A stretch of DNA of 64,000 nt from a virus (IMGVR_UViG_3300025012_000029:96001-160000); one strand, 5' to 3'. Numbered from the stretch's first letter, positions 37,183 through 64,000 are shown. Notes: generated by a model not told the origin, from the sequence alone. Translations and numbers: made by a program.

Positions 37183-37401
37183 TTATTCTGTCTCTACTTC
37201 AAGCATTGGAGGATTCAAAACTAAAAGTTTTCCATCCAAAGATTGTTCCATCTCTAATCCCAAAAGTAATTTTGTAATATCGCATTCTTCAGCAGGACGA
37301 TCAGAAGCAACGGACATAAGTCCTCTTTGAACACACATCATAATTGAACCAACCGCTTGTGGTGTAAATTGTAATTTTTTATTTTCCCATTTTTTCGTCA
37401 T
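37183..37401 (-). CDS. Hypothetical protein
   Basis: 72-aa ORF packed between neighbouring genes. Confidence 0.5.
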   Translation of the reverse strand: MTKKWENKKLQFTPQAVGSIMMCVQRGLMSVASDRPAEECDITKLLLGLEMEQSLDGKLLVLNPPMLEVETE

Positions 37402-37726
37402 TTAAATCTCCAAAATATTCCTTATCGTTCATAGCTTTATCATCAATCCAATGATCATAAAATGGCTTCCCGAGCTTCACTTCATGATACTTCGCTCCCC
37501 AGCTATCAAGTTGCTTCTTTGTGAAGTCAAAAAATCCTCGATATGCTTTTTCAACAACTTCACAATATCTACTCATACCTCGCGCGGTCCAATAAATTAT
37601 TATATGTCCTTCATCATAGAGTTTATTTATTTTTTCTATTCTGTTTTTGTAAGGAACAGCATTTTCGTAATCACCTTCTGTCCTAGAACAGATTGTTCCA
37701 TCAATGTCTACTATGTAAATTGCCAT
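37379..37726 (-). CDS. HAD-superfamily phosphatase (capsule-biosynthesis phosphatase type)
   Basis: IYIVDIDGTIC, YWTARG and GKPFYDHWIDDKA are HAD motifs I-IV. Confidence 0.8.
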   Translation of the reverse strand: MAIYIVDIDGTICSRTEGDYENAVPYKNRIEKINKLYDEGHIIIYWTARGMSRYCEVVEKAYRGFFDFTKKQLDSWGAKYHEVKLGKPFYDHWIDDKAMNDKEYFGDLNDEKMGK

Positions 37727-38135
37727 GCTCTAAAATCCTTGTTGTAGAATATCCAGGAATTCTATCAAAGTAAACAATTTCTTTACAATACTCTTCTCCA
37801 ACAATCTTCTTTCCTTCCCAATCAGACCCAACTATTCTAACATCTGGTTGAATAATTTTTAACATCTGAATTAATTCTTCTTCCGAATTAAAGCTTTTAA
37901 TCTGATCTATAAATTTTATTAATGACAAAGCATACATTCTGTCTTCAAGAGTGTTGAATGGTCGATTTATTCCTTTGTCTTTTTTAACTTTTTCATCCGT
38001 GTCAAGAGCTATGATGATTTTTGTCTTAGGATTACACAAAGAAGCAAATTCAATTAATTCAAAATGTCCGCGATGTAAAATATCAAAACAACCTGAAATA
38101 AACACAACAACTTCTTTACAATTTATATTAATCAT
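37701..38135 (-). CDS. Cytidylyltransferase-family nucleotidyltransferase (HldE/RfaE domain II-like)
   Basis: GCFDILHRGH, KGINRPFNTLEDR, IVGSDW and YSTTRIL. Confidence 0.85.
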   Translation of the reverse strand: MININCKEVVVFISGCFDILHRGHFELIEFASLCNPKTKIIIALDTDEKVKKDKGINRPFNTLEDRMYALSLIKFIDQIKSFNSEEELIQMLKIIQPDVRIVGSDWEGKKIVGEEYCKEIVYFDRIPGYSTTRILEHGNLHSRH

Positions 38136-38883
38136 CTAATTCTTCTTTATTTACAACTGATACGCCCCGATGTTGAGCAGCGTATGTTGCGCAATTATTG
38201 GCAAATTTTATTGCTTCCTCAATATTTTTTGTTTCAAGATATTTTACAACCAAACCACTTAAGAAGCTATCGCCGCAGCCAGCAACGTCTCTGGTTGTAA
38301 TTTTTGGAACTGGAAAAGTCATTCCTTTAAACATTGCTCCATCTGGACCAAGAGTTATAATAGTCTTGTTTATAATATCTTTGCTAAGATTACCTTTCGC
38401 GCGCTTAAACTCGTTCTCATTTACTTTTATAAAAGATAAATTTCTAACCCAAGCGCTCAAAGGTTTTTTTGTATCAATAAAAGTTAGTTTGTGAGAAGCA
38501 GCAATATATTTTATCTCCGATTCTGTTAAAAATCCCTTATTATAATCTGAAATAACAATCGCTTCATATTTAGAAAAATCTATTGAACGTAAATCAGAAC
38601 GACCATAGCTTTTATCATTTTCATCTATTCGAACAAACATATGATTGCTCTTATGTTCGACATAACGAGTTTTTGTAATTTCACGCCAATTTGTATTAGT
38701 ATACAGGTGAGCATCGGCGCCCAAAGCAAGCAGATTGTTTAGAACGTTTGAAGCCATGCCAGAATTTTCATTACGAGAAACTGGAACCAATATTGGTACT
38801 GGGCTTTCTGGACTTAAACGTGTACAGTCGCACCCAATAAAAACATCTAAATTTGATTCACCTATAACTAATATTTTAGACAT
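38128..38883 (-). CDS. PfkB-family sugar kinase (HldE/RfaE domain I-like)
   Basis: RLSPESPVP, GMASNVLNNL, ISDYNKG, KVNENE, ITLGPDGA and DVAGCGDSF; start taken at ATG 38883. Confidence 0.85.
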   Translation of the reverse strand: MSKILVIGESNLDVFIGCDCTRLSPESPVPILVPVSRNENSGMASNVLNNLLALGADAHLYTNTNWREITKTRYVEHKSNHMFVRIDENDKSYGRSDLRSIDFSKYEAIVISDYNKGFLTESEIKYIAASHKLTFIDTKKPLSAWVRNLSFIKVNENEFKRAKGNLSKDIINKTIITLGPDGAMFKGMTFPVPKITTRDVAGCGDSFLSGLVVKYLETKNIEEAIKFANNCATYAAQHRGVSVVNKEELDD

Positions 38884-38884
38884 A

Positions 38885-40087
38885 TTAAATAATACAATAA
38901 TGTGAAGTTTTGACAATGTTACAAATAAATTCTATGTCGTCCTTGGACAAAGAAATATAATTTGGCAAAAATAATCCACAAGAATGAATCCGATCTGATA
39001 TTGGATGAGAATATTCCCCATACAAATTTTTCCAAAAAACAGATTTCCCCATATTTCCGGCCGAATATATTCTTGTTTCAATTCCATGGAGTTTTAAATT
39101 TCTTACAATAATTTTTCTGTGTTCTTCCGAACTAGCAAGAACAGCAAATGATATAGAAGCGACATTATTTTGTTCCACTTCTTGAACTTGAAACATAGAA
39201 CTTCCTTCAAATTGTTTTTTATAAAAAATATGATTTTCGTGTCTTTTCTTTCCTATGCTGTCCAATTTCGAAATTTGTCTTAAACCAACAAATGCCATTA
39301 AATCGGTAGGACGAAGATTCATGCCTGGAACAATGAAAGAAAACTGTTCATAAATCTTCGAAATATTATATTTTTCCACCATTTCTTTTTTTGAATCATC
39401 ATCTAAATCTCTTATAAATCCATGAGAACGTAACATCAATAGGTGATTATAAATTTCTTTATCATCAGTAAAAACAACTCCACCCTCCGGAGGAACTGTC
39501 GAAACTTGATGCCCAAAAAATAAACTCCATGTAGATATATCACCTACTGCACCTGATTTTGTGCCATCGACATAATGTGATGTTACTGCCGCACACCCAT
39601 CCTCAATCAAATAAAAACCATATTTATTTTTAAGTTGAAGTAATCGATTTTTATCACATAAAACCCCGAGCGGCTGAACAAACAATACTACCGCAGGATT
39701 TTCTCTTTCACATATAATTTCTAATTCATCCAAATCCATCCCAAAGTTATTTTTATCCGCTCCAACCATTATGGGTTTATCAAATCCAAAATTTATAAAT
39801 GGAGCAATTGAAGTTGCCCACGCAACAGATGGAACGACACATTTATTGTTTTTTAATTTTCCAATTATTTTCAAAGCGTATATTGCTAATAAATTTGCAG
39901 ATGAACCACTATTACAAAGAACAGCATATTTTCTTCCAACCCATTCAGCAATCTTCTTTTCAAATTCCTTTGTCAACTCACCCATTGTAAGTTTTGGTGT
40001 TGGATTTTGTAGCATCCATTCACACAATGCCTCAATATCTGATCGATCAAACGTATCTTTAGCAAGTGGAAATTTAATATCTATCAT
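38885..40087 (-). CDS. DegT/DnrJ-family PLP enzyme, His-type (ColD-like GDP-4-keto-6-deoxymannose 3-dehydratase)
   Basis: NSGSSANL, LIEDGCAA and SLFFGHQVSTVPPEGG, with His at the usual Schiff-base Lys position; adjacent to gmd and fcl/colC-like genes. Confidence 0.7.
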   Translation of the reverse strand: MIDIKFPLAKDTFDRSDIEALCEWMLQNPTPKLTMGELTKEFEKKIAEWVGRKYAVLCNSGSSANLLAIYALKIIGKLKNNKCVVPSVAWATSIAPFINFGFDKPIMVGADKNNFGMDLDELEIICERENPAVVLFVQPLGVLCDKNRLLQLKNKYGFYLIEDGCAAVTSHYVDGTKSGAVGDISTWSLFFGHQVSTVPPEGGVVFTDDKEIYNHLLMLRSHGFIRDLDDDSKKEMVEKYNISKIYEQFSFIVPGMNLRPTDLMAFVGLRQISKLDSIGKKRHENHIFYKKQFEGSSMFQVQEVEQNNVASISFAVLASSEEHRKIIVRNLKLHGIETRIYSAGNMGKSVFWKNLYGEYSHPISDRIHSCGLFLPNYISLSKDDIEFICNIVKTSHYCII

Positions 40088-40088
40088 T

Positions 40089-41069
40089 CTATTTCCTTTC
40101 GTTTTTCACCAATTCTTCATCAGCATCGTACATTATTTTAACAAGCTGTTTAAATTTCGTTTTCGATTCGAATTTGAGAACTGCTTTGGCTTTCGAACAA
40201 TCACCTAGTAACATTGGAACTTCTTGCGCTCTATAATAGATTGGATCTATACGAACACATTTTTCATAATTACCCAAACCGGCATATTCAAATGTTTCTT
40301 TTAAAAATTCTTCAACAGAATGCATTTCTTCTGAACACAGTACGTAATCGCCTGGATGTTTTTGTTGAAGAATTTTCCATATTCCTTCACAAATTTCAGG
40401 AGCATAACTCCAATCTCTAAATGATTTTAGATTACCTAAAACTAATTCTTTTTGTATTCCAGCTTTTATTCTTGCCGCACCTAATGTTATTTTTCTAGTA
40501 ACGAAGTTTTCTCCGCGTCGACTAGACTCGGTGTTAAAAACTATTCCACAACTCGTGTGCAGATTATAAGCATTACGATAATTTACAACTAGATTGTGCG
40601 CTGCTACTTTTGAGCAAGCATACGGACTAGCAGGCATAAATCTAGACAATTCATTAAATGGAACATCAGGATTAAATCCAAACTGCTCACTAGAAGAAGC
40701 TTGATATAACTTTGTTTCTGGACTCAACCTATGAATACATTCAAGTATCCTAAGAGTCCCTATAGCAACTGTATTAAATGCTTCTTCGGGCATGTCAAAA
40801 GAAACTCTAACATGGCTCATACATCCCAAATTATAGAATTCATCTATTTTATATTTTGTAAAAATATTTACAATTGAAATTGGATCGTTAAAATCAAAAT
40901 ACTCCAATTTCAAATTTGGACTTAATAGAATATGATTTATTCTGGTTGTAGAATTGATTGTAGAAGTTCTTCTTTTTAATCCAACAACATAATATCCCTT
41001 ATCTAATAAGAGTTCTGCTAGATAACTTCCAATCTGCCCAGTAATACCGCTAATTGCAGCAATTTTCAT
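40089..41069 (-). CDS. gmd: GDP-mannose 4,6-dehydratase
   Basis: GITGQIGSYLAELLL, SHVRVSF, QASSSE, SPYACSK, FVTRKIT and LGNLKSFRDW. Confidence 0.92.
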   Translation of the reverse strand: MKIAAISGITGQIGSYLAELLLDKGYYVVGLKRRTSTINSTTRINHILLSPNLKLEYFDFNDPISIVNIFTKYKIDEFYNLGCMSHVRVSFDMPEEAFNTVAIGTLRILECIHRLSPETKLYQASSSEQFGFNPDVPFNELSRFMPASPYACSKVAAHNLVVNYRNAYNLHTSCGIVFNTESSRRGENFVTRKITLGAARIKAGIQKELVLGNLKSFRDWSYAPEICEGIWKILQQKHPGDYVLCSEEMHSVEEFLKETFEYAGLGNYEKCVRIDPIYYRAQEVPMLLGDCSKAKAVLKFESKTKFKQLVKIMYDADEELVKNERK

Positions 41070-42034
41070 TTCACACCCCTACAGTTTGGATAATTCGTCG
41101 TAAACCATTTCACACTTTCTTTCAATGCTACATCAATGCCTGTGTATTTAAAATTGGGAAACAGTTTATCAAAATATTGCGACTCTGTTTTTCTGCGCAT
41201 TTGTCCATTTGGTTTATCTTTGTTCCAAACAATATCGGGATAACTCGTACCTAGTTGTGAATAAACACTCAAAAAAGACAAATCAATCTTTTCGACAATT
41301 TCTTTAATAGAAAATTCTTGACCAGGAACAATCAATCTTTGAGGCATTAGTTCATTCTTTTTCAACAACTCAACACAAACTTTTGCTAAATCTTGAGCAT
41401 AAATAAATTCTCTTTTTGGACTGCCATCGCCCCAACATTCAATATTGGTTTCTGTCGCAAGAGCATTATAAAACTTATGGATGAGAGAAGGAACAACATG
41501 TCCGTCTTCTAAATCATAATTGTCTTTAATCCCAAAAATGTTAGTAGGAATAATTGAGCAATAGTTTACATCGTATTGATCTCGATATGCTCCAATCTGC
41601 ACATCAACCATGCGCTTTGCCATAGCATAGCTCCAGTGAGCAGGAAATGGAGGACCATCGTGCATATTGTTTTCTCTTAAAACTTCTGTATTAGAAGGAA
41701 AAACACATACAGACGAAAAGGCAATTAATTTTTCAATTTTATGTAAGTGTGCTTGTTTGATGATGTTTGTATTCATCAAAATATTATCATTAAATTGCTG
41801 TACTGGGCTATTTAGATTCCTTCCGATCCCTCCAACTCTAGCAGCGCAATGAATTATGTATTCAGGCTTATACAGTCTAAAAAGTCTTTCTACTTCTGAC
41901 TCCTTTGTCAAATCGGCATTCTTGCGTCCAACAAATATGAAATCTAATTCAGGATGGTCAAAGGAAATAGTTTTAATGGCATTACCTACAAGACCGTCCC
42001 CCCCCGTAACAAGCGCGCGACATGGTTTATCCAT
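41066..42034 (-). CDS. GDP-fucose synthase / ColC-like reductase
   Basis: IHCAARVGGI, FSSVCVFP, YAMAKR, GHVVPSLIHK and WGDGSPKREFIY. Confidence 0.88.
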   Translation of the reverse strand: MDKPCRALVTGGDGLVGNAIKTISFDHPELDFIFVGRKNADLTKESEVERLFRLYKPEYIIHCAARVGGIGRNLNSPVQQFNDNILMNTNIIKQAHLHKIEKLIAFSSVCVFPSNTEVLRENNMHDGPPFPAHWSYAMAKRMVDVQIGAYRDQYDVNYCSIIPTNIFGIKDNYDLEDGHVVPSLIHKFYNALATETNIECWGDGSPKREFIYAQDLAKVCVELLKKNELMPQRLIVPGQEFSIKEIVEKIDLSFLSVYSQLGTSYPDIVWNKDKPNGQMRRKTESQYFDKLFPNFKYTGIDVALKESVKWFTTNYPNCRGVK

Positions 42035-42218: not shown

Positions 42219-42977
42219 CTATCGCCCAAAACGCATATTCCATTTGCTTTCAGCATCTGTCCAATTATAATAATCGATTTTTATTCTCTGTGTTTGATCT
42301 TTGTCCCATATTTCTTCAAAAAGTTTTTTATCATTTTCAAAATATGCTCTTTGTATAGGTTTAGCGTCCGTTGTTACCCAAGACCAGTAAAAATTAGCAC
42401 ACGATTGATGCGATAGAATTATTTTACCACCATTATTCTGAATTCTAAACGAAAGATCGTGTGTATTCATATTTATGTGGAGAAACCGGCAATCTAAACC
42501 ACCCAATTCTCTAAAATAATTTGTATTATACATTCCTAGTGGAGCTATTTTATAGTCATCTGGGATACCAGCTAATTTCTGCATATCACCATGATGTTTC
42601 CCTCTCCAATAATCTAAAGGAAACTCTCCATTGCCTTCTCCTTCAAAATAACGTAATGTTATTCCATCTTTTTCTGTTGCTTGTCCGCTTTCAAATAATT
42701 GAATACATTGAGCTAAAGATCGAGGAGTTATAAATGTGCAGTCGTCCGATAACCACATTAAAAGTTTTCCCTCCGCTAGACAACTTCCCATTTGCACGCA
42801 TCTAGATGGAGATCCAAAATCTCTTATTACTTTAACTCCATCAATTGGAACATCATATGGACTGACAACAATTATCTCGTGAGAATATGGCTCAATTGCT
42901 CGGTCGAGCATGAATTGAATTTTCAATAAATTTTGGACTCGAATAGAAGGTATAATCACGGAAATATCAAATTTCAT
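42219..42977 (-). CDS. GT-A (GT2-like) glycosyltransferase, paralog 1
   Basis: ISVIIPSIR, GSPSRC, WLSDDC and YFRELGGLD. Confidence 0.75.
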   Translation of the reverse strand: MKFDISVIIPSIRVQNLLKIQFMLDRAIEPYSHEIIVVSPYDVPIDGVKVIRDFGSPSRCVQMGSCLAEGKLLMWLSDDCTFITPRSLAQCIQLFESGQATEKDGITLRYFEGEGNGEFPLDYWRGKHHGDMQKLAGIPDDYKIAPLGMYNTNYFRELGGLDCRFLHINMNTHDLSFRIQNNGGKIILSHQSCANFYWSWVTTDAKPIQRAYFENDKKLFEEIWDKDQTQRIKIDYYNWTDAESKWNMRFGR

Positions 42978-43291
42978 TTAATCTCCAAATTCTGGATAAC
43001 ATATCCTAAAAGTTGTTTACGAGAAATTCCTTTTTCAAAAGCCAATTGTTCAACTCTATTTTTCTTATCAATTCTCTCTTGAAATTTTTCTGCAGTGACA
43101 TTACCAAAAGCAATGCCTTCAGGTTCATCTCTATAATCCAATATGCGACCTAGTTCGTATGAACCATCATCATTTATCGCTACTTCTAAAGCAAGTCCCA
43201 ATGGATGAAAGAAGAGACGATTGGCTTCTTGAAGGAAACCAAATTCAAGAAATTCTTTAATATCCATATTTTTAATCTTATTAGAATTCAT
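42974..43291 (-). CDS. Phage hypothetical protein
   Basis: Likely start is ATG 43291 (ATGA overlap with the upstream gene); GFLQEANRLFFHPLGLALEV. Confidence 0.55.
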   Translation of the reverse strand: MNSNKIKNMDIKEFLEFGFLQEANRLFFHPLGLALEVAINDDGSYELGRILDYRDEPEGIAFGNVTAEKFQERIDKKNRVEQLAFEKGISRKQLLGYVIQNLEIK

Positions 43292-44073
43292 CCAAACCTC
43301 CTTTTCCATACTGCTGATGAATCTTTCCAATTATTAATGTCCAGTCTCATTTCTCCCATGGTCCACGAAGGATTTCTATATCGAGATTGAAATAAAGGCT
43401 TATCGTGTATAATTTGAGCAGATTCGATCGGAGCATGATCAAGTTGCTCATGATCACAATTTAGCAAAGGAAAATCAGACATCTTGACATTGGCGCCTAG
43501 ATATTGAGCCCGAACTGCCATGTCAGCGTGTGAGTAAAAAGTTCCTTCATACAAGGAATCCCATCCTCCAAGTTCTTCGAAAAAAGTCCGATGTATTATA
43601 GCAACATTAAAGAGCCACCACTCTTTTGAAATAAATGGCGATGAAGTCCAATCTGATCCGTTTAATTTGAAATAATTATCTGGTTGAAGAGGCTTCTCTG
43701 TACCATTTTTTCCTTCATAATATTTTGTCACAACAACATTTTTATTATTGTCTCCCATAGAACGAAGTAGATCTATATTTTTATCTAATGAATCTGGAAG
43801 GAGAATTCCATCATCGGCAATCCAAGTCACTAATTCTCCTTCACACATAGAAGCAGCAATTTGAGAAGCTCTCACAGGAGAACCATAATCTTTGACATAT
43901 TTAACACAATTAATAACTTCTAATTGTGGAGTAAGAGGAAATGGACCACATATGATTAATTCAAAAGTTTTTTTTGTAGAAGCAACAATTGAATCATATA
44001 CGGCATCCCAATTTTGTTGACGAATGCCTGGAAGGACTATCGATATTTCTGGTTTAGACATTGCAACTCCCAA
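43288..44073 (-). CDS. GT-A (GT2-like) glycosyltransferase, paralog 2
   Basis: ISIVLPGIR, GSPVRA, WIADDG and FFEELGGWD. Confidence 0.75.
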   Translation of the reverse strand: MGVAMSKPEISIVLPGIRQQNWDAVYDSIVASTKKTFELIICGPFPLTPQLEVINCVKYVKDYGSPVRASQIAASMCEGELVTWIADDGILLPDSLDKNIDLLRSMGDNNKNVVVTKYYEGKNGTEKPLQPDNYFKLNGSDWTSSPFISKEWWLFNVAIIHRTFFEELGGWDSLYEGTFYSHADMAVRAQYLGANVKMSDFPLLNCDHEQLDHAPIESAQIIHDKPLFQSRYRNPSWTMGEMRLDINNWKDSSAVWKRRFG

Positions 44074-45064
44074 TATATTCTATTACTTCGTCGATGCTTT
44101 CGTCGAGTGTTATTTTAGCTTCAAACCCAAGCAATTCTTTTGCCTTTGATACGTCGGGCTCTCTTCGAAGAGTATCATACTTGAATGGTTGCTCCATTTT
44201 GAATTCAAATGCTTCATTGGGTCGTAATTTGTTCCAAATAATTTCTGCTAATTCTTTTATCTTTATTGGATTTGGATTTGCGATATTAAAAATTTCATTC
44301 TCAGCAAGATTGCTTTCTAATGAAAGTCTAATACCTTTAGCAATATCTCGTACAGACGTAAAAGTTCTTATTTGATTTCCATCACCCAATATCTTTAACG
44401 GTTTTTGTCCAGATAAAGTTTTCATTATTAAATCTGGAATGACATGTGAACTTTCTCCTTTGCGAAAATCTTCCTCTCCAATCCCGCACGCATTCCAAGG
44501 ATTTATAATAGTATATGGCAATTTATATTGTTCACAAGCTGCTTTCGCAAAATACATTGTTCCTAATTTGGAAAATCCATATGAAGAAGGTGGAGGTGGT
44601 ATGTTAGGTATATCCGACTCAGATGTTGGAAATGTATCTGTCATATCCATAATCATTGAACTAGCTAACGCTACAATTCTTTTAAGTTGATGGTTTTGAA
44701 ATAAATCTATAGCACAATCAAACACGGAAGCATCTAGTCTCATATTTTCAGCTAGCAAATCAAATGCATTTGCATGAAAAAAAGATATGCCACCTATGGA
44801 AGCTGCGCAGTGAACAATGTAATCTACTTTATGTAGACCACTAAAAACTTCAACATTATCGCACGTACACCACTCGTTTAATTTTTTAGCATCTTCTTTA
44901 ATCAATTGAAAATTTGGATGATTATCGTGTGGCCTTTCGATGTAACCATATTTTGAATAATTATCTATAGATATGACATGATAATCATTATCAAGAAACT
45001 CTTGGCAAACCGCACTTCCGATGAAGCCTTGGCCACCAGTTACCAGTACCGTCGTCTTATTCAT
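44054..45064 (-). CDS. NAD-dependent epimerase/dehydratase (extended SDR)
   Basis: VTGGQGFIG, HCAASIGGI, YGFSK and GDGNQIRTF. Confidence 0.85.
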   Translation of the reverse strand: MNKTTVLVTGGQGFIGSAVCQEFLDNDYHVISIDNYSKYGYIERPHDNHPNFQLIKEDAKKLNEWCTCDNVEVFSGLHKVDYIVHCAASIGGISFFHANAFDLLAENMRLDASVFDCAIDLFQNHQLKRIVALASSMIMDMTDTFPTSESDIPNIPPPPSSYGFSKLGTMYFAKAACEQYKLPYTIINPWNACGIGEEDFRKGESSHVIPDLIMKTLSGQKPLKILGDGNQIRTFTSVRDIAKGIRLSLESNLAENEIFNIANPNPIKIKELAEIIWNKLRPNEAFEFKMEQPFKYDTLRREPDVSKAKELLGFEAKITLDESIDEVIEYIGSCNV

Positions 45065-45270: not shown

Positions 45271-45585
45271 CTATCTCTGCTCACGTATCAATTTAGCATA
45301 ATATCTTTTATCAAAAAGATTGAACCAGATATCGTCGTCGACATTTTTTTGAACTCCACGACACCAGTAACCCTTAATTTCTGTACGACTAGTATCTATG
45401 TCAATAGCATCATCAAACATATTCTTGCCGCATTCATCCCAAACAATCAATCTATCTCCATCCGTTAGAGGATGTAGATTCTCATATGAGCACTGCTCCT
45501 TATCATGGTCTGTCTGCATACACCAGATGATACCCTCTGTCCCAGTTGCTACATAAGCCAACAATTTTCCATCAAAAGTCTTCAT
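45271..45585 (-). CDS. Small hypothetical protein
   Basis: 104 aa; coupled to its neighbours. Confidence 0.5.
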   Translation of the reverse strand: MKTFDGKLLAYVATGTEGIIWCMQTDHDKEQCSYENLHPLTDGDRLIVWDECGKNMFDDAIDIDTSRTEIKGYWCRGVQKNVDDDIWFNLFDKRYYAKLIREQR

Positions 45586-46416: not shown

Positions 46417-46599
46417 TTATATTTTCTTTTGCTTCAAGTGGTTGTAAATAAAGAGAACATTTTCTGGAAGGTTGTTTGGCTCATCTAAGGATGTTATTGT
46501 TATAGTTTTGCAATTCTTGTTTAGCAAAAGATTCACAAGATGGCGACCAATCATTCCTGTTCCGCCGCTTATTAGCACATTTTTGTTTTCAAAATACAT
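46417..46599 (-). pseudogene. Internally deleted SDR epimerase stub (60 aa)
   Basis: NVLISGGTGMIGRHLVNLLL (Rossmann beta1-alpha1) is followed by a stop after 60 aa. Confidence 0.7.
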
Positions 46600-48072: not shown

Positions 48073-48296
48073 TGTTTTTCTACATATCCTGTACAGGATG
48101 GTAAATCTAACAGATCTTCAGGATCATTGTCCTCGTGTCCGTAACTCCATCCCCTACAAATAGGACAAATAATTTTTCCATCTTTTTCTAAACACTTAAA
48201 AGAACAATAGTCATAATACCATTCTTCGACTCCACAGCTAGAACAAATATGATATTTCTCTCCACAAACCTTACAAACTGTTCCACCGAATGCCAT
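48069..48296 (-). CDS. Small Cys-rich (zinc-finger-like) protein
   Basis: CKVC, CSSC, YCSFKC and CPIC in 75 aa. Confidence 0.55.
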   Translation of the reverse strand: MAFGGTVCKVCGEKYHICSSCGVEEWYYDYCSFKCLEKDGKIICPICRGWSYGHEDNDPEDLLDLPSCTGYVEKQ

Positions 48297-55480: not shown

Positions 55481-55879
55481 CTAACCACATGAGAAACTTT
55501 CGCCGCATCCACAACAACGAGATGCGCTTTGGTTGATAAACTTAAACCCTGATCCCATTAATCCTTCTCTATAATCTAACACAACATTTTGAAGAAATAT
55601 AAAACTTTTTGGGTCTACTAAAACAGCTTTTCTGCTTTCATCTATCGGAATAACATGGTCGCCTTCTTCTAACGTTCCATCTTCAAGAAGATAACGATAT
55701 CCCGAACAACCTCCTGCTATCACTCCAACACGAATATATTGTCCTCTCTCTTCTTTTTCTTCAAGATATTTTACAAACTCTACCTTTGCCGCTTCTGTTA
55801 TTTGCAATGGTTGTTTTTCTTCAGAATTATCCATTTTTCTTCTTTCTTCTCCACCTATTATTTTTTCACTATAGCTCAA
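55481..55879 (-). CDS. iscA: A-type Fe-S cluster carrier (IscA/HesB family)
   Basis: IRVGVIAGGCSGYRY, LDYREGLMGSGFKFIN and CCGCGESF; the start may be 55834. Confidence 0.9.
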   Translation of the reverse strand: MSYSEKIIGGEERRKMDNSEEKQPLQITEAAKVEFVKYLEEKEERGQYIRVGVIAGGCSGYRYLLEDGTLEEGDHVIPIDESRKAVLVDPKSFIFLQNVVLDYREGLMGSGFKFINQSASRCCGCGESFSCG

Positions 55880-56647: not shown

Positions 56648-57727
56648 TTATACTATTATTCCTTCAACGTATTTTGCTATCGATAAACAGCAAGTAAGCC
56701 CAGGTGATTCTATTCCAATCAAGTTTATCATATTGCGGAAACCATTGTCAATTTCATTCTTGATTATAAAATCTTTTTTATTGCCCTCATTACCAGAAAG
56801 TCTTGGACGAATTCCACTATAATCAGGAAATATATCTTCATCGCCTAATTCAATATATTCATTGATAGATGAAAGAAAACTTTCTTTAAATCTTTCATCA
56901 ATATTGTAATCAACATCGTATACTCTATAAGCGTTTGGTCCAAAAGAAACAGAACCATCTAAATTAATTCGAGTATGTATTCCCAAACTATCAAAACGAG
57001 GCAATGGATAAATTAAATGATTAAGATTTTTAATTTTATTTGTTTTATAATAATCGCCTTTCCAGAATTCCAATCTATATTGGTTTGGAAAAAGCAAATT
57101 TGCTATTTTATCTGCCCAGAGCCCAGCACAATTAATTAGAATTTTAGATGTTAAATGAAAATCATCTATTCCAACTCGAAAAGTGCCACCTTCATAGCGA
57201 TCGTATTGAATGCTCCGAACATTACATCCGAATCCAACATATACGTTGTTTCTCTGTCCTATCTGTCTATTCAATTCATACATTAAAGCATGAGAGTCGA
57301 TTATGCCAGTAGACGGCACCCATACAGCGGTATTATACTTTATAGTATCAGGAATATTATCTTTCGCTATTGTTAACCCTTCAATGCCATTTCTCTTTCC
57401 GTTGGAAAGGATATCAATTAAATAACCTTCCTCTCCTTTTTGGCATATGATAAATTTTCCGCATTTCTTATGATGAATATTGTGCTCATGAGCAAAATCA
57501 TAAAGCATTTTATTGCCTTCAATACACAATTTTGATTTTAGACTATTTGCTTGGTAATAAATACCAGAATGAATTACTTCACTATTTCTACTTGAAGTAT
57601 GTTGACCAAAACTGTTTTCTTTTTCAACAATGATTACTTGTTTCCCAGAACGAGATAAGCGTTCAGCTATAGCAAGACCAATTACTCCAGCACCAATAAC
57701 AATAATTTCGGCATCAATAGTTGGCAT
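56648..57727 (-). CDS. FAD-dependent oxidoreductase, L-2-hydroxyglutarate oxidase (LhgO)-like family
   Basis: IVIGAGVIG, TSSRNSEVIHSGIYY, STGIIDSH, INCAGLWAD, KGDYY, YSGIRP and GIESPGLT. Confidence 0.85.
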   Translation of the reverse strand: MPTIDAEIIVIGAGVIGLAIAERLSRSGKQVIIVEKENSFGQHTSSRNSEVIHSGIYYQANSLKSKLCIEGNKMLYDFAHEHNIHHKKCGKFIICQKGEEGYLIDILSNGKRNGIEGLTIAKDNIPDTIKYNTAVWVPSTGIIDSHALMYELNRQIGQRNNVYVGFGCNVRSIQYDRYEGGTFRVGIDDFHLTSKILINCAGLWADKIANLLFPNQYRLEFWKGDYYKTNKIKNLNHLIYPLPRFDSLGIHTRINLDGSVSFGPNAYRVYDVDYNIDERFKESFLSSINEYIELGDEDIFPDYSGIRPRLSGNEGNKKDFIIKNEIDNGFRNMINLIGIESPGLTCCLSIAKYVEGIIV

Positions 57728-58658
57728 AGATTATAAAATCATCATTTAACATTTCGTACACAGTTTTGAGTTGTATAATGCCTTCATCTAGATCAGTACG
57801 GCAACTAAATCCTTTATCATAGAATTTTTGACTACTAATAATATAATTCCGACAATCAGGATCCTTTGTTATTTGTGCTTCAATAATTTCCAATGGAATA
57901 TGTTCAGAAATTTTTTGACAAAGCTGAAGTTTACTCATATTGAGTTTATCATTTCCAACGTTAAATACTTCATTTTTACACTTATCCCAATTATTTATGG
58001 CGAATATAAAAGCATTACACGCATCATCAATATGTATATAATTACGCATGTATGAGCCTTCATATACAATAAGAACTTTTTCTCTCATTGCCTTTAACAC
58101 AAGATTGTTCACAAGCAAATCAGTTCGCATCCTTGACGATGGACCAAACACTGTAGCAAGTCTCATCGAACAATGGTTCTCGACTTGCCGAATTGCTTCT
58201 TCGCCAGCGCATTTTGATTTTCCATAAACAGATATCGGATTAAGTGGATCTTTTTCTGTTATCGTTGAAGTCCCATCAGTAGTTCCATAACCAGAATTCG
58301 AATTTGGAACCAAAAGTAATTGATCTTTTGATTTGTTATTGGCAAGGAATTCATTAGCTCCGTGATGAATGTCCCACGCTTCTTGTGGACGTTTATCACA
58401 TAATGGAGCGCCGACTAAAGCAGCGAGAGAAATAATAACATCATGATTTTTTAATAAAAAACCAAGCAACTCTTTATCTCGTACATCACCTTTAACAAAA
58501 TTGAATCTATCATCATTTGCGTACTGAAGAAGAGAAGTTTTATCGTAAAGAAGTGAGTCTAGTGCTGTAACTTCACCGAATGGATAGTCCTGTTCTAAAA
58601 TTTTGCCAACTAGATTAGAACCAATATATCCCGCTGCTCCGGATATAAGATATCTCAT
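57714..58658 (-). CDS. NAD-dependent epimerase/dehydratase (extended SDR)
   Basis: ISGAAGYIGS, LAALVGAPLC, YGKSK and RLATVFG. Confidence 0.85.
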   Translation of the reverse strand: MRYLISGAAGYIGSNLVGKILEQDYPFGEVTALDSLLYDKTSLLQYANDDRFNFVKGDVRDKELLGFLLKNHDVIISLAALVGAPLCDKRPQEAWDIHHGANEFLANNKSKDQLLLVPNSNSGYGTTDGTSTITEKDPLNPISVYGKSKCAGEEAIRQVENHCSMRLATVFGPSSRMRTDLLVNNLVLKAMREKVLIVYEGSYMRNYIHIDDACNAFIFAINNWDKCKNEVFNVGNDKLNMSKLQLCQKISEHIPLEIIEAQITKDPDCRNYIISSQKFYDKGFSCRTDLDEGIIQLKTVYEMLNDDFIIYANY

Positions 58659-59158: not shown

Positions 59159-60829
59159 TTATTCAACACTGTCAAAGTATTCTTTAAAGGTATTATAATT
59201 TGACTCTCCTATAACATCTTTAAATTCATGGAAAACATCACGTTCTTCGCGCCTTCGACGAAGCATTTTGTCTGGATCGGAACTTGTGCTTAATCCGTCT
59301 GGATTATAATAATAAAGTCCCAATATTTTATTAACCTTCTTAAAAAGAGAACCAGCTCTAACAGCTCGCAACCATAACTCCCAATCTCCAGCGTGTTTGA
59401 GTTTTTCATCCCATAGTCCCGCTTTATCGTGAATAGATTTACGATATAGAGGTAGGGGTCCGGGAAGACATTTGATCATATTTTCTCTGGAAAAATCCAT
59501 TCGAGAGTGTTCATACAATCTTCCTTTTGAAGAATTTTGTTCAACTGTTTCATTAGGTTTTGTCGTTTGAAGACAATCCCCATATACCAAATCGATTTCT
59601 GGATTCAACATTAAGTGTTTTGCTAGTGTTTCTAAATGATCGTTCGCCATCCTATCATCAGCCAACACACATGCTATAAATTCCCCGGACGCAAGTTTCG
59701 TTGCTTCATTAAATGCTTCCATTGGAGTTATTTGGGTGTTTTTTCTAATATATTTAATATTGTCTGTATGCACTTGTATATATTTCGAAATTATTGAGAC
59801 TTCATCATCTGGAGAATTGGCATCGATAATGATTAATTCAGAATCGTCTGATATTGTTTGTGCTACAAACGAATCCATAAAACCTTTAATATGTTCCTTT
59901 GCTTTATAGATTGTCGTAATAACTGAAACTTTGGGAAGTTTTACTGAATTAAATTTTTCCACTTCTTTATCTTTGATTACTTTCTCAAACAAATCAATTG
60001 TTTTTTCTTTTCTTCCGGCAATATATTCTAATAACTCTTCGCCCTTTAATTTGAAAAAATCTTCTGATGCGCATCCTAAAGCTTTGTTTGTTATTAATTT
60101 ACAACCTAGAATTCTAGCTTCAATCGCGACCCTACAAAATGTTTCAATCCATGTAGGAAAAAACACCAACGTTTCTGTTTTGGCAAGTTCATCAAAAAAT
60201 CTATCTTGATCACAAAATGGAATTAATTCATAATTTATTTTATTCTTTTTACAATATTGTATTGCTTCGGGCATGCCTTTATTTTTATTATTGGATTGGA
60301 TAATACCAACTTTTCTATTCTTCTTTTTTCCAATATTGTTGCGAAGGACTTCAACTGCTTCATCAGACCATATATTACATCCAATATTGACAATATTTTT
60401 GAGAAGAAGATTTTTCTCCATTATTTCAGCATGCATCTTGCTTTGACAAAAAACTGCTTTCGCTGATTTAAAAAATTGTTTATTCTGTATTTGATCTTCA
60501 GGAACAACAAGATTTGGAAATAATGCTGGGTTATTTGATTTGAATGCCTTCCAATCATTTTCAACTATCAAATAATTTATTTTTTCATTAATCAGTGTTT
60601 GTTTACTATCTTCTGGTAATAGCATAAAATTTGATATTATCCAAAAACAATCTTTATTGTCTTTTAGCAAGTTAGAAGTACATTCAACACTTTTAAGTTT
60701 TTCTAATTCGAATCCACGTTTCTGCAGAGACTTTATTTGTTCTTCTGCGCACAACTCGGCACCGCCACAGATTTCATTAGCAAAATAGTCAGCAACATAA
60801 ACAACTTTTTTAGTATTAATCATACGCAA
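59159..60829 (-). CDS. Two-domain glycosyltransferase (GT-B-like fused to GT2)
   Basis: N-terminal GGAELC...ETFCRVAIEARILGC; C-terminal KVSVITT, LIIIDANS, LADD and GDWELWLR. Confidence 0.8.
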   Translation of the reverse strand: MRMINTKKVVYVADYFANEICGGAELCAEEQIKSLQKRGFELEKLKSVECTSNLLKDNKDCFWIISNFMLLPEDSKQTLINEKINYLIVENDWKAFKSNNPALFPNLVVPEDQIQNKQFFKSAKAVFCQSKMHAEIMEKNLLLKNIVNIGCNIWSDEAVEVLRNNIGKKKNRKVGIIQSNNKNKGMPEAIQYCKKNKINYELIPFCDQDRFFDELAKTETLVFFPTWIETFCRVAIEARILGCKLITNKALGCASEDFFKLKGEELLEYIAGRKEKTIDLFEKVIKDKEVEKFNSVKLPKVSVITTIYKAKEHIKGFMDSFVAQTISDDSELIIIDANSPDDEVSIISKYIQVHTDNIKYIRKNTQITPMEAFNEATKLASGEFIACVLADDRMANDHLETLAKHLMLNPEIDLVYGDCLQTTKPNETVEQNSSKGRLYEHSRMDFSRENMIKCLPGPLPLYRKSIHDKAGLWDEKLKHAGDWELWLRAVRAGSLFKKVNKILGLYYYNPDGLSTSSDPDKMLRRRREERDVFHEFKDVIGESNYNTFKEYFDSVE

Positions 60830-63326
60830 TAACTTCTTTCAATAAGGGATTAACTTCTTTTTCTTCTTTCAGAAAATCCGCAATATCTACAATTGGATAA
60901 TATTCATCTACACAATCGGCGAAATGTGTCAACATCTTATCGGAATCAAATTTGTCTAACACATATTCTTGAAGTTTGTTTGCTCGCGATTTACAAGAAC
61001 CATAATTTTTGTAAACTTCCCTCATTTGTTGTTTAGCATCAATTTCTCTAGGAAAGCACCATTGTGCATCAGGAATAATTATTCCATCCCAAACTGCTTC
61101 TGGTTGAACATTTTTAATATCGTACGCTACGTTAGAAATCATACATGTATTTTTGATTTTATTCTTTTTCTTATCTTTTATTGGCATATAAATAAAATCA
61201 TTTTGTCCACTCCATGCGGGGGCAACTATCGGCAATCCATTATATGCTGATTCAAACATTGGAAGACAGTTGTGCACCATAAAATTTTCAGTACAATAAG
61301 TTTCGTCTTCTTCAACAGAAAGGTTGAATACTTTACCAGCGTGCTGAAATTTAGTAATATTTTTTATTCTCAGCAAAAAACAATCTTCTTTTTCTTTAGT
61401 TCTTCCAGATTGTTTTTCATTAAACGAATCTGCCAACTGCAGTGTGTCGTATATTACAGTATTAGAAGTATGTTTATTTAACATGGTTACAAATTTATTA
61501 ATACTTTCTTTTTTTCCAATAACTAACGAATGAATTTCACTCTTGTAATTCCATTTTTCTTTAATAATTCCTTCTCGGGTGCACATTTTATAGGAACATA
61601 ATATTCCTTGTTCTAATAATAATATTCTAATTTGTCTCAATAATGTTTTATTGACAAGTTGTACCTCTATAGATGGATTCTTGTAATTTTTAGTATTAAT
61701 ATATCCATCTCCTTCAAATAAAGCAGTAATCATTCCCTCTTTAAATTCATTAGGAAACGAGAAAACGCAATCACTAATAACTTTATTTTTTGATTTATTT
61801 CCCAATAAAGATTTGAAAAATAAAGCCACAATTTTATTGTGAAATACAATAACAGAACATTTTTTATTTTTTCTTTTTTCTATCCTAAAATGTTCTATCC
61901 CGAATATATCTTTCATGCAATTGATAATTTCTTTTCCAAAAGAATCAATTTCTTTATCATGAAGAGAAAAAGCAATAATTCTATCATCAGATACACATCC
62001 TTCGGCTAAAAACCATCCACACAATCTACCAAATTTTTTATCAATATTGATATTATTTTTTATTTTTAGGCCAAGTTTATTTGAATGCATATAAAAAATA
62101 TCTTCATCGTTTAGTACTAAATTTTTTTCATTTTTTACGTGTTCAAATATATCAATATTGTTAATGATATTTTCTTTTTTTGACATTTTTGGCAAAACCA
62201 AATAGTCATTTTGTTTTAATTCATCGCTTCTTTTCCACAAGAATTCTTTATTTTTATTATCATAAATGTAAACATTGTGATTCGGCGTTAAAACAATTGG
62301 TTCCATAGGTACTGCACAATATGGAACAATTTTAATCATCTCGCCAGAATATTCACGAGACATAGGAGTTATAACTTTTCGATATCGATTTCTATGAGTC
62401 AATACTAAATCTCCAGATTTAATATCGATCAATTTCTTAAGTCCTTTGTCTGTAATAATTGGAGTATAGTCCAATCCGCAGAAACCTTCTCCGTGCGTTA
62501 AACTAATGAAAGCTTTAATTTTTGGATGTCTATAAAGAAAAGTCATTTCTTCCTCTCTTAAATCTCCATGTAAAAGATGTATAGCACATTTTCGTTCTTT
62601 TCCATTAAATTGAGATAAAACATCATTAACTCTATTTTGAGTCATTTCTCTATCCATTAATGATTGATTAACGGAATTGACTTTCAATATTAATCCAACT
62701 TCTTTATTCATAAACTCTTCAACGAACCATTTAATTGTATTTTCAACATTCTTTCGTGGTCCCCATTGAGCTACAGTTAGAAAATTAAAATCATACTTAA
62801 AATCAACATTAATTGGTTTTGGTTCTACAATTCTAACCGGATAAGGAACAACTTCCATTGGCATCTCAAGTTTGGCAACAAATTGTCTTCCTGTAACATT
62901 ATCTGTCGCTGGAAACTGCGCATTGGTAAAACCAAATTTAGAATGATTAGATGTTAATAGAATTTTGTTTACATTGAAACATCCCTGAAACCATTGAGGT
63001 GAAATTTTAGTTGTTTCAATTCCAGCAGTATATCCAATATTAATTGGAGCCATTTTTTTCCACTCATTTGGGATACAAACTTGTAATGATATATCAAACT
63101 GTCCACCTTGTTGTTGATAAACAAGAGTTTTTTGAAGAATTTGATCAATCCAGCGGCGCTCTTCTGTATCTTCCCATGTCCAACTTGTTCTACCCCAAGG
63201 GGTATTAATGAGATATATGTCAAATCGTTCTGGAAACTTTCGAAGAGCGGAAAGAGCAAAACGACTCTGAACACCATAACCGCTTTGGCTCAAAAAAGGT
63301 CCCCTCATTATGATTTTTTTAGTCAT
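60816..63326 (-). CDS. GT4-family glycosyltransferase interrupted by an intein
   Basis: SGYG and FLTVAQWGPRKN; after intein removal the extein reads HGEGF/CLPMFE, giving the EX7E motif. Confidence 0.85.
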   Translation of the reverse strand: MTKKIIMRGPFLSQSGYGVQSRFALSALRKFPERFDIYLINTPWGRTSWTWEDTEERRWIDQILQKTLVYQQQGGQFDISLQVCIPNEWKKMAPINIGYTAGIETTKISPQWFQGCFNVNKILLTSNHSKFGFTNAQFPATDNVTGRQFVAKLEMPMEVVPYPVRIVEPKPINVDFKYDFNFLTVAQWGPRKNVENTIKWFVEEFMNKEVGLILKVNSVNQSLMDREMTQNRVNDVLSQFNGKERKCAIHLLHGDLREEEMTFLYRHPKIKAFISLTHGEGFCGLDYTPIITDKGLKKLIDIKSGDLVLTHRNRYRKVITPMSREYSGEMIKIVPYCAVPMEPIVLTPNHNVYIYDNKNKEFLWKRSDELKQNDYLVLPKMSKKENIINNIDIFEHVKNEKNLVLNDEDIFYMHSNKLGLKIKNNINIDKKFGRLCGWFLAEGCVSDDRIIAFSLHDKEIDSFGKEIINCMKDIFGIEHFRIEKRKNKKCSVIVFHNKIVALFFKSLLGNKSKNKVISDCVFSFPNEFKEGMITALFEGDGYINTKNYKNPSIEVQLVNKTLLRQIRILLLEQGILCSYKMCTREGIIKEKWNYKSEIHSLVIGKKESINKFVTMLNKHTSNTVIYDTLQLADSFNEKQSGRTKEKEDCFLLRIKNITKFQHAGKVFNLSVEEDETYCTENFMVHNCLPMFESAYNGLPIVAPAWSGQNDFIYMPIKDKKKNKIKNTCMISNVAYDIKNVQPEAVWDGIIIPDAQWCFPREIDAKQQMREVYKNYGSCKSRANKLQEYVLDKFDSDKMLTHFADCVDEYYPIVDIADFLKEEKEVNPLLKEVIAYD
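61269..62480 (-). mobile_element. Intein (404 aa) with a LAGLIDADG homing endonuclease
   Basis: Starts CGLDYTPII, ends VFNLSVEEDETYCTENFMVHN, +1 residue is Cys; DOD motifs LCGWFLAEG and ITALFEGDG. Confidence 0.92.
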
Positions 63327-63334
63327 TGTGCTTC

Positions 63335-63655
63335 CTATAATATATTTTTAATTTTTATTTCATTAGTTTTTGGATCGCATACACGCGAAGATAAAGATAC
63401 ATTATCTATATGCCTAGGATATAATAATCTTTTTTTTAGTGCGACTTCTTTTAGTTTTTGTCCACGAAGTGAATTTTTAAAAAAACTTTTTATACTGTTA
63501 TTAAAACATTCTTTATTATCAAAACAAATATTATGTGGTGAAAACTTAATTGACTTTTTTTCCACCCGGCGTCGCAAAGTATATAATAATCTCTCAATTA
63601 GAAAAAACATATACTCCATCGTTTTCAATAAATTATAAATAATATTTTTCACCAT
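63335..63655 (-). CDS. Hypothetical protein
   Basis: 106-aa basic ORF between two glycosyltransferase genes; weakly supported. Confidence 0.35.
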   Translation of the reverse strand: MVKNIIYNLLKTMEYMFFLIERLLYTLRRRVEKKSIKFSPHNICFDNKECFNNSIKSFFKNSLRGQKLKEVALKKRLLYPRHIDNVSLSSRVCDPKTNEIKIKNIL

Positions 63656-63674
63656 ATTTACCCCTTACACTTTT

Positions 63675-64000
63675 TTATAAAGTTCTCAATTCCCACGCTC
63701 TGTAACATTTTCTATTTTCCCAACTACCATGCTTTTCGTGAACATGAGTTAAAACTTCATCCCAACGCTTGTTGAATGATTCAAAATTATAATTTTTGAT
63801 AACATGTTCTCTTCCCTTTTTACCCATCAATATGCGTTCTTCTTTTGTCATATTATAAAACATAACCATTGCCTTGAGAAAATCCGGTTTTGAAATTCTG
63901 TCCTCAAAAATATATGGCACTGTTTGTGATCCAATTACAACGCTTGACGCCGGAATTATTCCAATTCCATGTTCACATATTTTTATTTTATCAGATATCT
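63675..64000 (-). CDS. GT-B glycosyltransferase, C-terminal part (runs off window end)
   Basis: The frame stays open to the window edge: ...GIGIIPASSVVIGSQTVPYIFEDR...MGKKGREHVIKNYNFESFNKRW. Confidence 0.7.
   Translation of the reverse strand, partial: ISDKIKICEHGIGIIPASSVVIGSQTVPYIFEDRISKPDFLKAMVMFYNMTKEERILMGKKGREHVIKNYNFESFNKRWDEVLTHVHEKHGSWENRKCYRAWELRTL

Follow-up and report, generated by a model that had tools for sequence, protein, structure and literature searches.

What does a bacteriophage do with a glycan pathway of some 25 genes, and onto which acceptor does it load the product? The question is raised by a gene island in a virus record of IMG/VR (IMGVR_UViG_3300025012_000029), a single contig of 201,144 bp of which bases 96001-160000 were analysed as one 64,000-nucleotide stretch, termed the window; positions are those of the window unless stated otherwise. 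The island spans genome positions 133379-161259 (27.9 kb, about 25 genes, window-equivalent end 65259) and extends 1.26 kb beyond the window because a family 4 glycosyltransferase (GT4) gene cut at 63675-64000 continues to 65259. We read it as a self-contained cytoplasmic glycan-synthesis locus of a clade of large myophages, the acceptor of which would most likely be surface-exposed virion proteins, and we give this reading slightly less than an even chance. A virion acceptor is favoured indirectly by the self-contained and soluble nature of the system in all its versions, by components restricted to viruses and by a conserved pair of GT4 genes at the head of the island.

Genomic setting and absence of export machinery

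The contig is a complete or near-complete jumbo phage genome and not a bacterial chromosome, since it is a viral record with a CheckV completeness of 100%, carries a large-terminase match (genome 84018-84623) as well as tail genes, and is uniform in composition; the viral origin that the original prediction had assumed is thereby established. A simple call of open reading frames (ORFs) gave 95% coding density with 235 of 253 ORFs on the minus strand, the guanine plus cytosine (GC) content is 33%, and GC and GC skew run uniformly across the island borders, the island having the GC content of the remainder of the genome. That the contig owes its island to mis-assembly with a bacterial locus for O-antigen or capsule, or is such a locus taken in error for phage DNA, is in our view a negligible prospect: the enzyme families of the island are bacterial in origin, but against an artefact stand the single contig with its strand bias and even composition, phage genes on both flanks, selfish elements of phage type inside the island (intein, group I intron, HNH gene), a like arrangement in independent assemblies, and the occurrence of the sequence in groundwater metagenome runs of two studies.

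All island genes lie on the minus strand, with 18 junctions that overlap or abut within 4 nt. As the original prediction had described, the island runs in the direction of transcription into a sigma gene and then into tail genes; the sigma is a weak match to the late type (phrog_234, E 2e-6), and with it the lower half of the window holds a baseplate wedge protein as well as three giant tail proteins, in which Pfam found no domains. Upstream lie a DUF559/NUMOD3 endonuclease, a PD-(D/E)XK nuclease and an intein-bearing PhoH, so that the island occupies the boundary between DNA-metabolism genes and the late genes for sigma and tail. Among cultured phages, the baseplate wedge protein is nearest to those encoded by Flavobacterium phage vB_FspM_immuto (immuto) and Microcystis phage Mel-JY01, that is, the baseplate is Immutovirus-like. 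The PhoH gene is a PIN-PhoH fusion split by a LAGLIDADG intein (L001:5148-7742, minus strand), 5 kb upstream of the island.

A promoter and terminator scan was uninformative (91 sigma-70-like sites vs 92 expected; 4 terminator-like sites vs 8.6 expected), and the T4 late motif TATAAATA had no placement upstream of genes. An enriched 8-mer, ACTATTTA, occurs in 17 coding-strand copies genome-wide, of which 9 precede a gene start by 11-64 nt. Tail genes at window 3013 and 5363 are among the genes so preceded, no copy lies inside the island, and the 8-mer is a candidate phage promoter element.

The original prediction had noted that the window holds no exporter and no membrane-bound glycosyltransferase (GT). 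A hydropathy scan of all ORFs extends this to the whole 201-kb genome, in which no protein has more than five hydrophobic segments; several segments occur only in a tail-type protein of 985 aa and a holin-like ORF of 115 aa, and within the island only the N-termini of Rossmann folds score. The Wzx, Wzy, ABC-2, Bac_transf and MraY/WecA families gave no match among the Pfam-scanned proteins of the island, its upstream flank and related loci, and no polytopic membrane protein was found in five to six related islands. Family-model and membrane scans of the island genes, which the original prediction had proposed, thus returned sugar enzymes and no polytopic protein, and these results support a glycan system that is wholly soluble and cytoplasmic.

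Glycosyltransferases, the conserved head and related loci

Seven GT genes carry eight predicted GT domains without membrane anchor; the eighth domain, in the N-terminal half of a 556-aa protein, was judged by eye and has no family match.

42219..42977, minus strand: GT-A glycosyltransferase paralogue 1, of a Pfam-less family, with an invariant DD motif
43288..44073, minus strand: GT-A glycosyltransferase paralogue 2 (weak PF00535 match; alignment to the paralogues)
48841..49638, minus strand: GT-A glycosyltransferase paralogue 3 (AlphaFold predicted local distance difference test score 98)
49631..50590, minus strand: GT-B glycosyltransferase of the PF13524 family (E 1e-18), with orthologues in the related contigs L010 and L011
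59159..60829, minus strand: 556-aa glycosyltransferase, C-terminal half GT2 (PF00535, E 1e-17, residues 302-469)
60816..63326, minus strand: GT4 glycosyltransferase, a 432-aa extein with a 404-aa LAGLIDADG intein (61269-62480)
63675..64000, on to window-equivalent 65259, minus strand: first GT4 gene of the island, 3' part (PF00534 on L001:675-1922)

The last two genes of this list form the head of the island. When GenBank phages were searched with the N-extein of the intein-bearing GT4, matches were found only in immuto and Mel-JY01, and in both phages the order PD-(D/E)XK nuclease, GT4, GT4 is syntenic with the island head. Their GT4 homologues share 28-36% identity with those of the island (first GT4 against immuto gp181, 33%, E 8e-74; the second corresponds to gp180). 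After the head, both carry a shorter and different set of transferase or sugar genes, which occupies about 11 kb of the immuto genome and 6-7 kb of that of Mel-JY01. Since the same two cultured phages share the head synteny and the related baseplate wedge, the locus appears to be ancestral to a clade with hosts among Bacteroidota and Cyanobacteria as well as in groundwater, and to combine a conserved head with variable cassettes.

The intein-bearing gene is assigned to GT4 through its intein-less homologues, which carry PF00534: the N-extein has 5,953 homologues (53-76% identity for the best 120 listed), mostly intein-less and 415-440 aa long, from freshwater, marine (Tara) and other samples. 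The separated exteins had no Pfam match, and the spliced extein matched the other GT4 only at E 0.001 in a local comparison. The intein itself has Intein, LAGLIDADG and Hint matches, with boundaries Cys1 ... HN / Cys+1. It sits in a conserved GEGF / LP..E motif, and a glycosyltransferase is an unusual intein host protein. The first GT4 gene, which also matches PF20706 (a 'conflict systems' GT4 family), is interrupted after its first 14 codons by a 259-nt group I intron, the splice junction of which was read by hand (RF00028, 62 bits, E 2e-15, at L001:1954-2238, minus strand, equal to genome 160954-161238). An Rfam scan of 83 kb at gathering threshold missed this intron because its speed filters hid a true match, which was found when 700 bases were searched; Rfam gave no other RNA family in the island. 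Both conserved head genes thus hold selfish elements, an intron in the first and an intein in the second.

The three GT-A paralogues are mutually 37-38% identical. The model of paralogue 3 has a generic GT-A fold, with template-modelling (TM) scores of about 0.6 to RmlT, ppGalNAc-T and WrtF, and is uninformative on the acceptor. A profile search of a 50%-identity representative set gave 353 clusters of this family at E<1e-30, many of them tandem fusions. No tblastn hit was obtained among 50,697 GenBank phage records, and a 3-sequence profile gave a single hit among 185,579 prokaryote species genomes. This hit lies on a 5.9-kb contig of 32.5% GC (L012, JAPLWR010000067.1) in a metagenome-assembled genome of Candidatus Magasanikiibacteriota from Lac Pavin. 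The contig carries island-like genes (GT-A, radical SAM, DegT) and probably represents phage sequence put in the wrong bin; alternatively, it may point to the host. The N-terminal 295 aa of the 556-aa transferase have no Pfam family match.

The module recurs, as seen in the contexts of GT-A family members, in other metagenomic contigs of 113-187 kb. The collinear stretch of L011 (113 kb) runs from the 556-aa transferase past the phosphatase at the island's end to the sigma gene, at 43-62% identity. The closest relative, L006, which comes from one metagenome with L003, shares 56-71% identity over syntenic genes and 45% for the methyltransferase. Orthologues of 10-15 island genes, at 25-59% identity, are held by L009 (187 kb), L010 (177.6 kb) and L004/7/8 (129 kb, of which about 30 kb is island, with more than 10 transferases). 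L010 has five GT-A copies, and a collagen-like tail-fibre gene adjoins its island on the opposite strand; its sigma-like gene has no detectable homology to the sigma of the phage studied here, so that sigma adjacency in L010 was not counted as support. The collinear or orthologous islands of these relatives, together with a GC content matching the genome, point to a conserved module and not to a one-off capture. No GenBank phage was matched by 19.6 kb of the island in a Megablast search, and IMG/VR scans returned one edge-of-contig relative for the sigma protein and none for the radical SAM enzyme.

Predicted sugar chemistry

The original prediction had listed about 20 co-oriented and mostly translationally coupled sugar-pathway genes: HldE-like domains, Gmd/ColD/ColC-like enzymes, three further short-chain dehydrogenases/reductases (SDRs), a dehydrogenase, the seven GTs, a methyltransferase, a thiamine diphosphate (ThDP) pair and a B12 radical S-adenosylmethionine (SAM) enzyme. 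All are present on the minus strand where it had placed them (ORF list, Pfam, NCBIfam), along with three genes that it had not named, namely a HAD phosphatase (37379-37726), a flavoenzyme (56648-57727) and an IscA-type carrier (55481-55879). The enzymes predicted to activate and deoxygenate the sugar, in which NDP stands for nucleoside diphosphate, GDP for guanosine diphosphate, PMP for pyridoxamine phosphate and FAD for flavin adenine dinucleotide, are as follows.

37379..37726, minus strand: small HAD-type sugar-phosphate phosphatase, GmhB/capsule-phosphatase-like, with a DIDGT motif; last island gene
37701..38135, minus strand: nucleotidyltransferase, HldE domain II-like (PF01467, E 5e-12; TIGR02199, E 3e-25, below cut-off)
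38128..38916, minus strand: PfkB-family anomeric sugar kinase, shortened HldE domain I-like (PF00294, E 3e-19; TIGR02198, E 5e-34, below cut-off)
38885..40087, minus strand: PMP-dependent NDP-4-keto-6-deoxy-sugar 3-dehydratase, ColD-like (best solved relative ColD/WbdK 2GMS, E 2e-47)
40089..41069, minus strand: GDP-mannose (or NDP-heptose) 4,6-dehydratase, Gmd (PF16363, E 7e-105, 351 bits, above cut-off)
41066..42034, minus strand: Fcl/ColC-like epimerase-reductase (NF047922 GDP-L-fucose synthase, E 8e-56)
56648..57727, minus strand: FAD oxidoreductase, L-2-hydroxyglutarate-oxidase-like (PF01266, E 1e-52; NF008726, E 5e-61, below cut-off)
57714..58658, minus strand: Cj1427-family NDP-heptose C4-dehydrogenase, an SDR (phmmer E 3e-68 to 6VO6)

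The SDR at 57714-58658 is related to 6VO6, which is Cj1427 of Campylobacter jejuni according to the entry title. Its AlphaFold model superimposes on 6VO6/6VO8 with a TM score of 0.90 at 40% identity, the next solved structures having at most 25% identity, and oxidation of an NDP-heptose at C4 is strongly supported as its predicted reaction. Cj1427 oxidises GDP-heptose at C4, and its tightly bound cofactor is regenerated by conversion of alpha-ketoglutarate to L-2-hydroxyglutarate (PMC10680097). The flavoenzyme gene overlaps the 3' end of the Cj1427-type gene, a pairing that recurs in L007, and we infer a redox couple that recycles alpha-ketoglutarate: the dehydrogenase would consume it to regenerate its bound nicotinamide adenine dinucleotide (NAD+) and the flavoenzyme would turn L-2-hydroxyglutarate back to alpha-ketoglutarate.

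In alignments to 2GMS and to the H188N and H188K mutants, the ColD-like protein has a His at the position of ColD His188, where aminotransferases have Lys. This residue rules out an aminotransferase assignment for the DegT-family protein at 38885-40087. Because the His-type dehydratase is flanked by Gmd and an Fcl-like enzyme, a colitose-type 3,6-dideoxy-sugar route is strongly supported at the level of sequence; in this route Gmd would carry out 4,6-dehydration, the ColD-like enzyme a PMP-dependent 3-deoxygenation and the Fcl/ColC-like enzyme epimerisation and reduction. The trio could act on heptose as well as on mannose, since the C. jejuni HS:5 route has like enzymes, in which a 4,6-dehydratase, a pyridoxal phosphate (PLP)-dependent C3-dehydratase, an epimerase and a C4-reductase lead to a 3,6-dideoxy-heptose (PMC10680097). 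An NDP-heptose is likewise a conceivable substrate of Gmd because its TIGR01472 score of 348 bits lies under the equivalog cut-off of 415; the Fcl/ColC-like protein scores 190 bits on NF047922 (cut-off 500).

Supply of the activated sugar would fall to the kinase, the HAD phosphatase and the nucleotidyltransferase, which by likeness could cover three of the four steps that activate heptose and would activate a sugar by the same logic. Their best matches are HldE domains I and II and a HAD capsule phosphatase, and all of these lie under equivalog cut-offs. The phosphatase, without Pfam annotation, matches TIGR01689 (capsule biosynthesis phosphatase, E 1.5e-12) and phrog_1238 (E 1e-31) and has an orthologue of 52% identity in L011.

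The remaining sugar enzymes and their neighbours are listed next.

44054..45064, minus strand: SDR, nucleotide-sugar epimerase or decarboxylase-like (PF01370, E 7e-40; solved relatives GalE, UXS, ArnA)
45582..46400, minus strand: short NDP-sugar dehydrogenase, Ugd-like (PF03721 and PF00984; TIGR03026, E 3e-38)
46589..47542, minus strand: SDR, Fcl/GalE-like (PF01370, E 1e-39), in a segment missing from the closest relative
48296..48844, minus strand: SAM methyltransferase (PF13489, E 2e-5, below cut-off)
50814..51353, minus strand: minimal ThDP enzyme, beta (Pyr) subunit, 179 aa (NF006667, E 2e-9)
51346..52155, minus strand: free-standing HNH endonuclease between the ThDP subunit genes (weak PF13395), with six 45-nt tandem repeats (15-aa unit)
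52158..52811, minus strand: minimal ThDP enzyme, alpha (PP) subunit, 217 aa (PF00676, E 1e-13; TIGR03182, E 4e-21)
52812..54350, minus strand: B12-binding radical SAM enzyme (PF02310 and PF04055; nearest HpnJ, E 1e-40, and AprD4 6FD2, E 1e-11)
55481..55879, minus strand: IscA/ErpA-type Fe-S carrier (TIGR00049, 85 bits, above cut-off)
42974..43330, minus strand: conserved 118-aa ORF without family match, with a 62% orthologue in L006
58662..59156, minus strand: conserved 164-aa ORF of an almost only viral family (55-56% orthologues in L007 and L011; nearest Atlas clusters 100% viral)

The ThDP pair, the radical SAM enzyme and the methyltransferase may be tailoring enzymes for C-branching, methylation or deoxygenation. 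By analogy with YerE and AviB1/B2, the ThDP pair, the radical SAM enzyme (served by the IscA-type carrier) and the methyltransferase would put C-branches or methyl groups on 4-keto intermediates. HpnJ and AprD4, the nearest relatives of the radical SAM enzyme, both work on sugar rings. The ThDP pair consists of PP and Pyr domains only, without E2 or E3 partner, and its beta subunit has orthologues of 59-63% identity in L010 and L011. Methyltransferase orthologues of 40-50% identity occur in L008, L009, L010 and L011. The Ugd-like protein comprises only the N-terminal and central domains, a short form kept in L006 and L011.

Several further features were noted within the island. The segment from the methyltransferase to the SDR at 46589-47542 lies elsewhere or is absent in L006, and this SDR is flanked by an orphan SDR N-terminus (46417-46614, GGTGMIGRHLV) and by a copy of the first ~20 codons of Ugd (47559-47696); the duplicated flanks are sequence evidence of a cassette insertion with target duplication. 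The HNH gene is missing between the ThDP subunit genes of L009, L010 and L011 and is not a member of the pathway. The gap that separates the Fcl-like gene from the first GT-A gene holds, at 42035-42214 (minus strand), a remnant of the N-terminus of a similar endonuclease. The two copies of a 69-nt direct repeat, 94% identical (50631-50699 and 55369-55437), lie within two small ORFs that share a C-terminus; they enclose the ThDP pair, the HNH gene and the radical SAM gene together with two ORFs without assignment, and may be a recombination scar. The arrangement of L011 differs between the Cj1427-like SDR and the ThDP pair. Between the radical SAM and IscA genes, a 199-aa ORF (54544-55143, minus strand) without family match has a ParB/sulfiredoxin-like DGTHR motif by eye. 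The sole island protein with a signal peptide is a predicted lipoprotein of 243 aa (55881-56612, minus strand), its signal peptide ending in LLSSC, with a metzincin-like QEIGHTLGLSH in which the first His is replaced; it has no orthologue in related islands and may be an envelope-acting moron.

The acceptor of the glycan

With the sugar activated, deoxygenated and tailored as above, the eight soluble GT domains would assemble an oligosaccharide, and the two head GT4 enzymes would start the glycan on capsid, tail or fibre proteins in the cytoplasm during assembly. The conservation of the head pair across phages of different host phyla suggests that it probably primes an acceptor that travels with the phage, and hosts in both Bacteroidota and Cyanobacteria argue against a host-specific acceptor. 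The original prediction had proposed that the phage makes its own rare sugars and attaches them in the cytoplasm to virion proteins. Its first part, own sugars and soluble GTs in a phage-borne island, agrees with our results, and its second remains a deduction. A more specific version, in which a widespread aquatic clade of large myophages carries its own host-independent system for protein glycosylation in the cytoplasm, with the two cultured phages as its minimal forms, is possible, and we hold it with more doubt. In it the conserved head pair would prime virion proteins and lineage-specific cassettes would supply rare sugars, which here would be a 3,6-dideoxy-heptose or -hexose, C-branched or methylated and made with the Cj1427/L-2-hydroxyglutarate-oxidase redox couple.

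A number of observations weigh against a virion acceptor or against the pathway behind it. Mucin-like Ser/Thr tracts and collagen repeats were not found in the structural proteins of this phage, the scans for promoters and terminators gave no link between the island and late transcription, and island sequence was matched only by groundwater DNA runs and by no RNA run. The adjacency to sigma and tail genes, which the original prediction had correctly described, is weak evidence, because the island sits at the boundary of DNA-metabolism and late genes and other carriers have it elsewhere or in reverse orientation to the neighbouring tail-fibre gene. Beyond the island, no similarity between this genome and L004, L009 or L010 was detected; the module may move between phages, or its enzymes alone may have stayed recognisable, and in the first case the case for a co-inherited acceptor would lose force. 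Soluble enzymes account for most of the O-antigen glycosyltransferases and build lipid-linked units, so that missing exporters leave a feeding of host lipid-linked pathways possible. On the side of the chemistry, exact substrates are uncertain because most matches lie under NCBIfam equivalog cut-offs, and GmhA, the sedoheptulose-7-phosphate isomerase with a SIS domain, has no PF13580 match in the whole genome. Heptose is for this reason not established as the kinase substrate: the host would have to supply the GmhA step, or the kinase would have to act on another sugar.

The solubility of O-antigen transferases bears on a remodelling of the host envelope, in which phage sugars and soluble GTs would act on undecaprenyl-linked or lipid A-core intermediates of the host and the host flippase, polymerase and ligase would display the glycan; such an altered glycan could block superinfection or stop the loss of progeny on cell debris, a role that has been put forward for the lipopolysaccharide clusters of cyanophages. 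The same enzyme families build capsules and O-antigens (the heptose enzymes of C. jejuni, ColD of E. coli O55, TIGR01689), soluble transferases are compatible with the missing membrane proteins, and the 22-gene cluster of S-SCSM2R and its P-SSM2 homologues have been read in this way (PMC12801897). We nevertheless consider it unlikely, given that neither the genome nor the related islands encode an initiating transferase, flippase, polymerase, ligase or ATP-binding cassette (ABC) exporter, that the head GT4 pair is common to a Flavobacterium and a Microcystis phage with differing envelope pathways, that the GT-A family is almost absent from prokaryote genomes, unlike a recently borrowed host pathway, and that the Wzx/Wzy of the host would need to accept a foreign repeat unit, the product of as many as eight GT domains. 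Somewhat less likely still is another soluble acceptor, be it non-virion proteins, a small molecule, or a free oligosaccharide or glycoconjugate serving as decoy, signal or protective solute. The sequence specifies no acceptor, the conserved small ORFs at 42974-43330 and 58662-59156 could encode carriers, and the PF20706 match of the first GT4 would fit such a role; yet an investment of 25 genes of this kind has no known phage precedent, and the two ORFs are short and have no recognisable modification site.

The original prediction had also named DNA as an alternative acceptor, with sugars placed on modified phage bases to evade restriction. Phage glycosyltransferases commonly glycosylate DNA, and the island adjoins DNA-metabolism genes. 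The known glycosylation routes of hydroxymethylcytosine (hmC), hydroxymethyluracil (hmU) and 5-hydroxycytosine (5hoC) nevertheless all start from a thymidylate-synthase homologue (bioRxiv 10.1101/2025.06.16.659550), for which the complete genome has no PF00303 match. Nucleoside liquid chromatography-mass spectrometry (LC-MS) of virion DNA from immuto, which has the syntenic GT locus, gave only deoxyadenosine (dA), deoxycytidine (dC), thymidine (dT) and formyl-preQ1, hence no glycosylated base (bioRxiv 10.1101/2023.04.13.536721). As seven GT genes with branched and deoxy-sugar chemistry also go well beyond any known DNA glycan, DNA hypermodification now looks very improbable.

Multi-gene glycan clusters as such are already known in large phages, and the novelty implied by the original prediction was overstated: large cyanophages carry clusters of 22-24 cell-wall or lipopolysaccharide (LPS) genes (PMC12801897). 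The cyanomyoviruses P-SSM2, S-SCSM1 and S-SCSM2R, with genomes of 170-250 kb, have a like island of tens of co-located GT and NDP-sugar genes including a Gmd that shares 46-47% identity with the one described here, but they belong to another phage lineage, whereas the baseplate of this phage is nearest Immutovirus. To our knowledge, these cyanophage clusters have never been assigned an acceptor. The loci of immuto and Mel-JY01 share the position after the PD-(D/E)XK nuclease, the homologous head GT4s and a related baseplate, but have other or no sugar-synthesis genes and lack the heptose/3,6-dideoxy, ThDP and radical SAM chemistry of the island. The capsular heptose pathway of C. jejuni has the same enzyme set (C4-dehydrogenase, Gmd-type 4,6-dehydratase, PLP/PMP 3-dehydratase, Fcl-like reductases); its enzymes use GDP-heptose from HddA/HddC and its product is exported as capsule, whereas the island has HldE/GmhB-type activation, no exporter, and an L-2-hydroxyglutarate-oxidase-like gene coupled to the dehydrogenase.

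Virion glycosylation is also known, from mycobacteriophages, where soluble phage GTs are proposed to act on capsid or tail acceptors in the cytoplasm, according to the account of Freeman et al. 2023 given in PMC12619734. Mycobacteriophages have 1-4 GT genes and use host nucleotide sugars, whereas this phage is predicted to make its own rare sugars. We know of no phage-particle glycans documented outside the mycobacteriophages, with their few GTs and host sugars. Among giant viruses (Megavirinae fibrils, chloroviruses), virus-encoded soluble rare-sugar pathways and GTs decorate the particle and cluster content is clade-specific; these eukaryotic viruses have no sequence relationship to the island beyond generic folds. 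Set against the mycobacteriophage and cyanophage systems, the island has a richer set of enzymes, some of them exclusive to viruses. What is new here is the gene content, namely the Cj1427/L-2-hydroxyglutarate-oxidase couple, the ColD-type dehydratase, the minimal ThDP pair, the B12 radical SAM enzyme and the GT-A family, all with essentially no tblastn hits in GenBank phages, as well as the conservation of the module across uncultivated large phages and its link to a syntenic locus in cultured ones.

Since the head is shared with two cultured phages, the acceptor question is open to bench experiment. For enzymology, the flavoenzyme is a possible natural alpha-ketoglutarate recycling partner for Cj1427-type dehydrogenases, and the island offers a ThDP enzyme of two minimal subunits and a B12 radical SAM enzyme, both of which may tailor sugars, along with a new GT-A family. 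If a conserved head pair does prime virion proteins across the clade, the locus would stand beside the clade-specific glycan coats of giant viruses as their bacteriophage counterpart. Virions coated with rare sugars would matter for how stable phages are, how they adsorb and how grazers or immune systems recognise them, as well as for the sources of rare-sugar enzymes.

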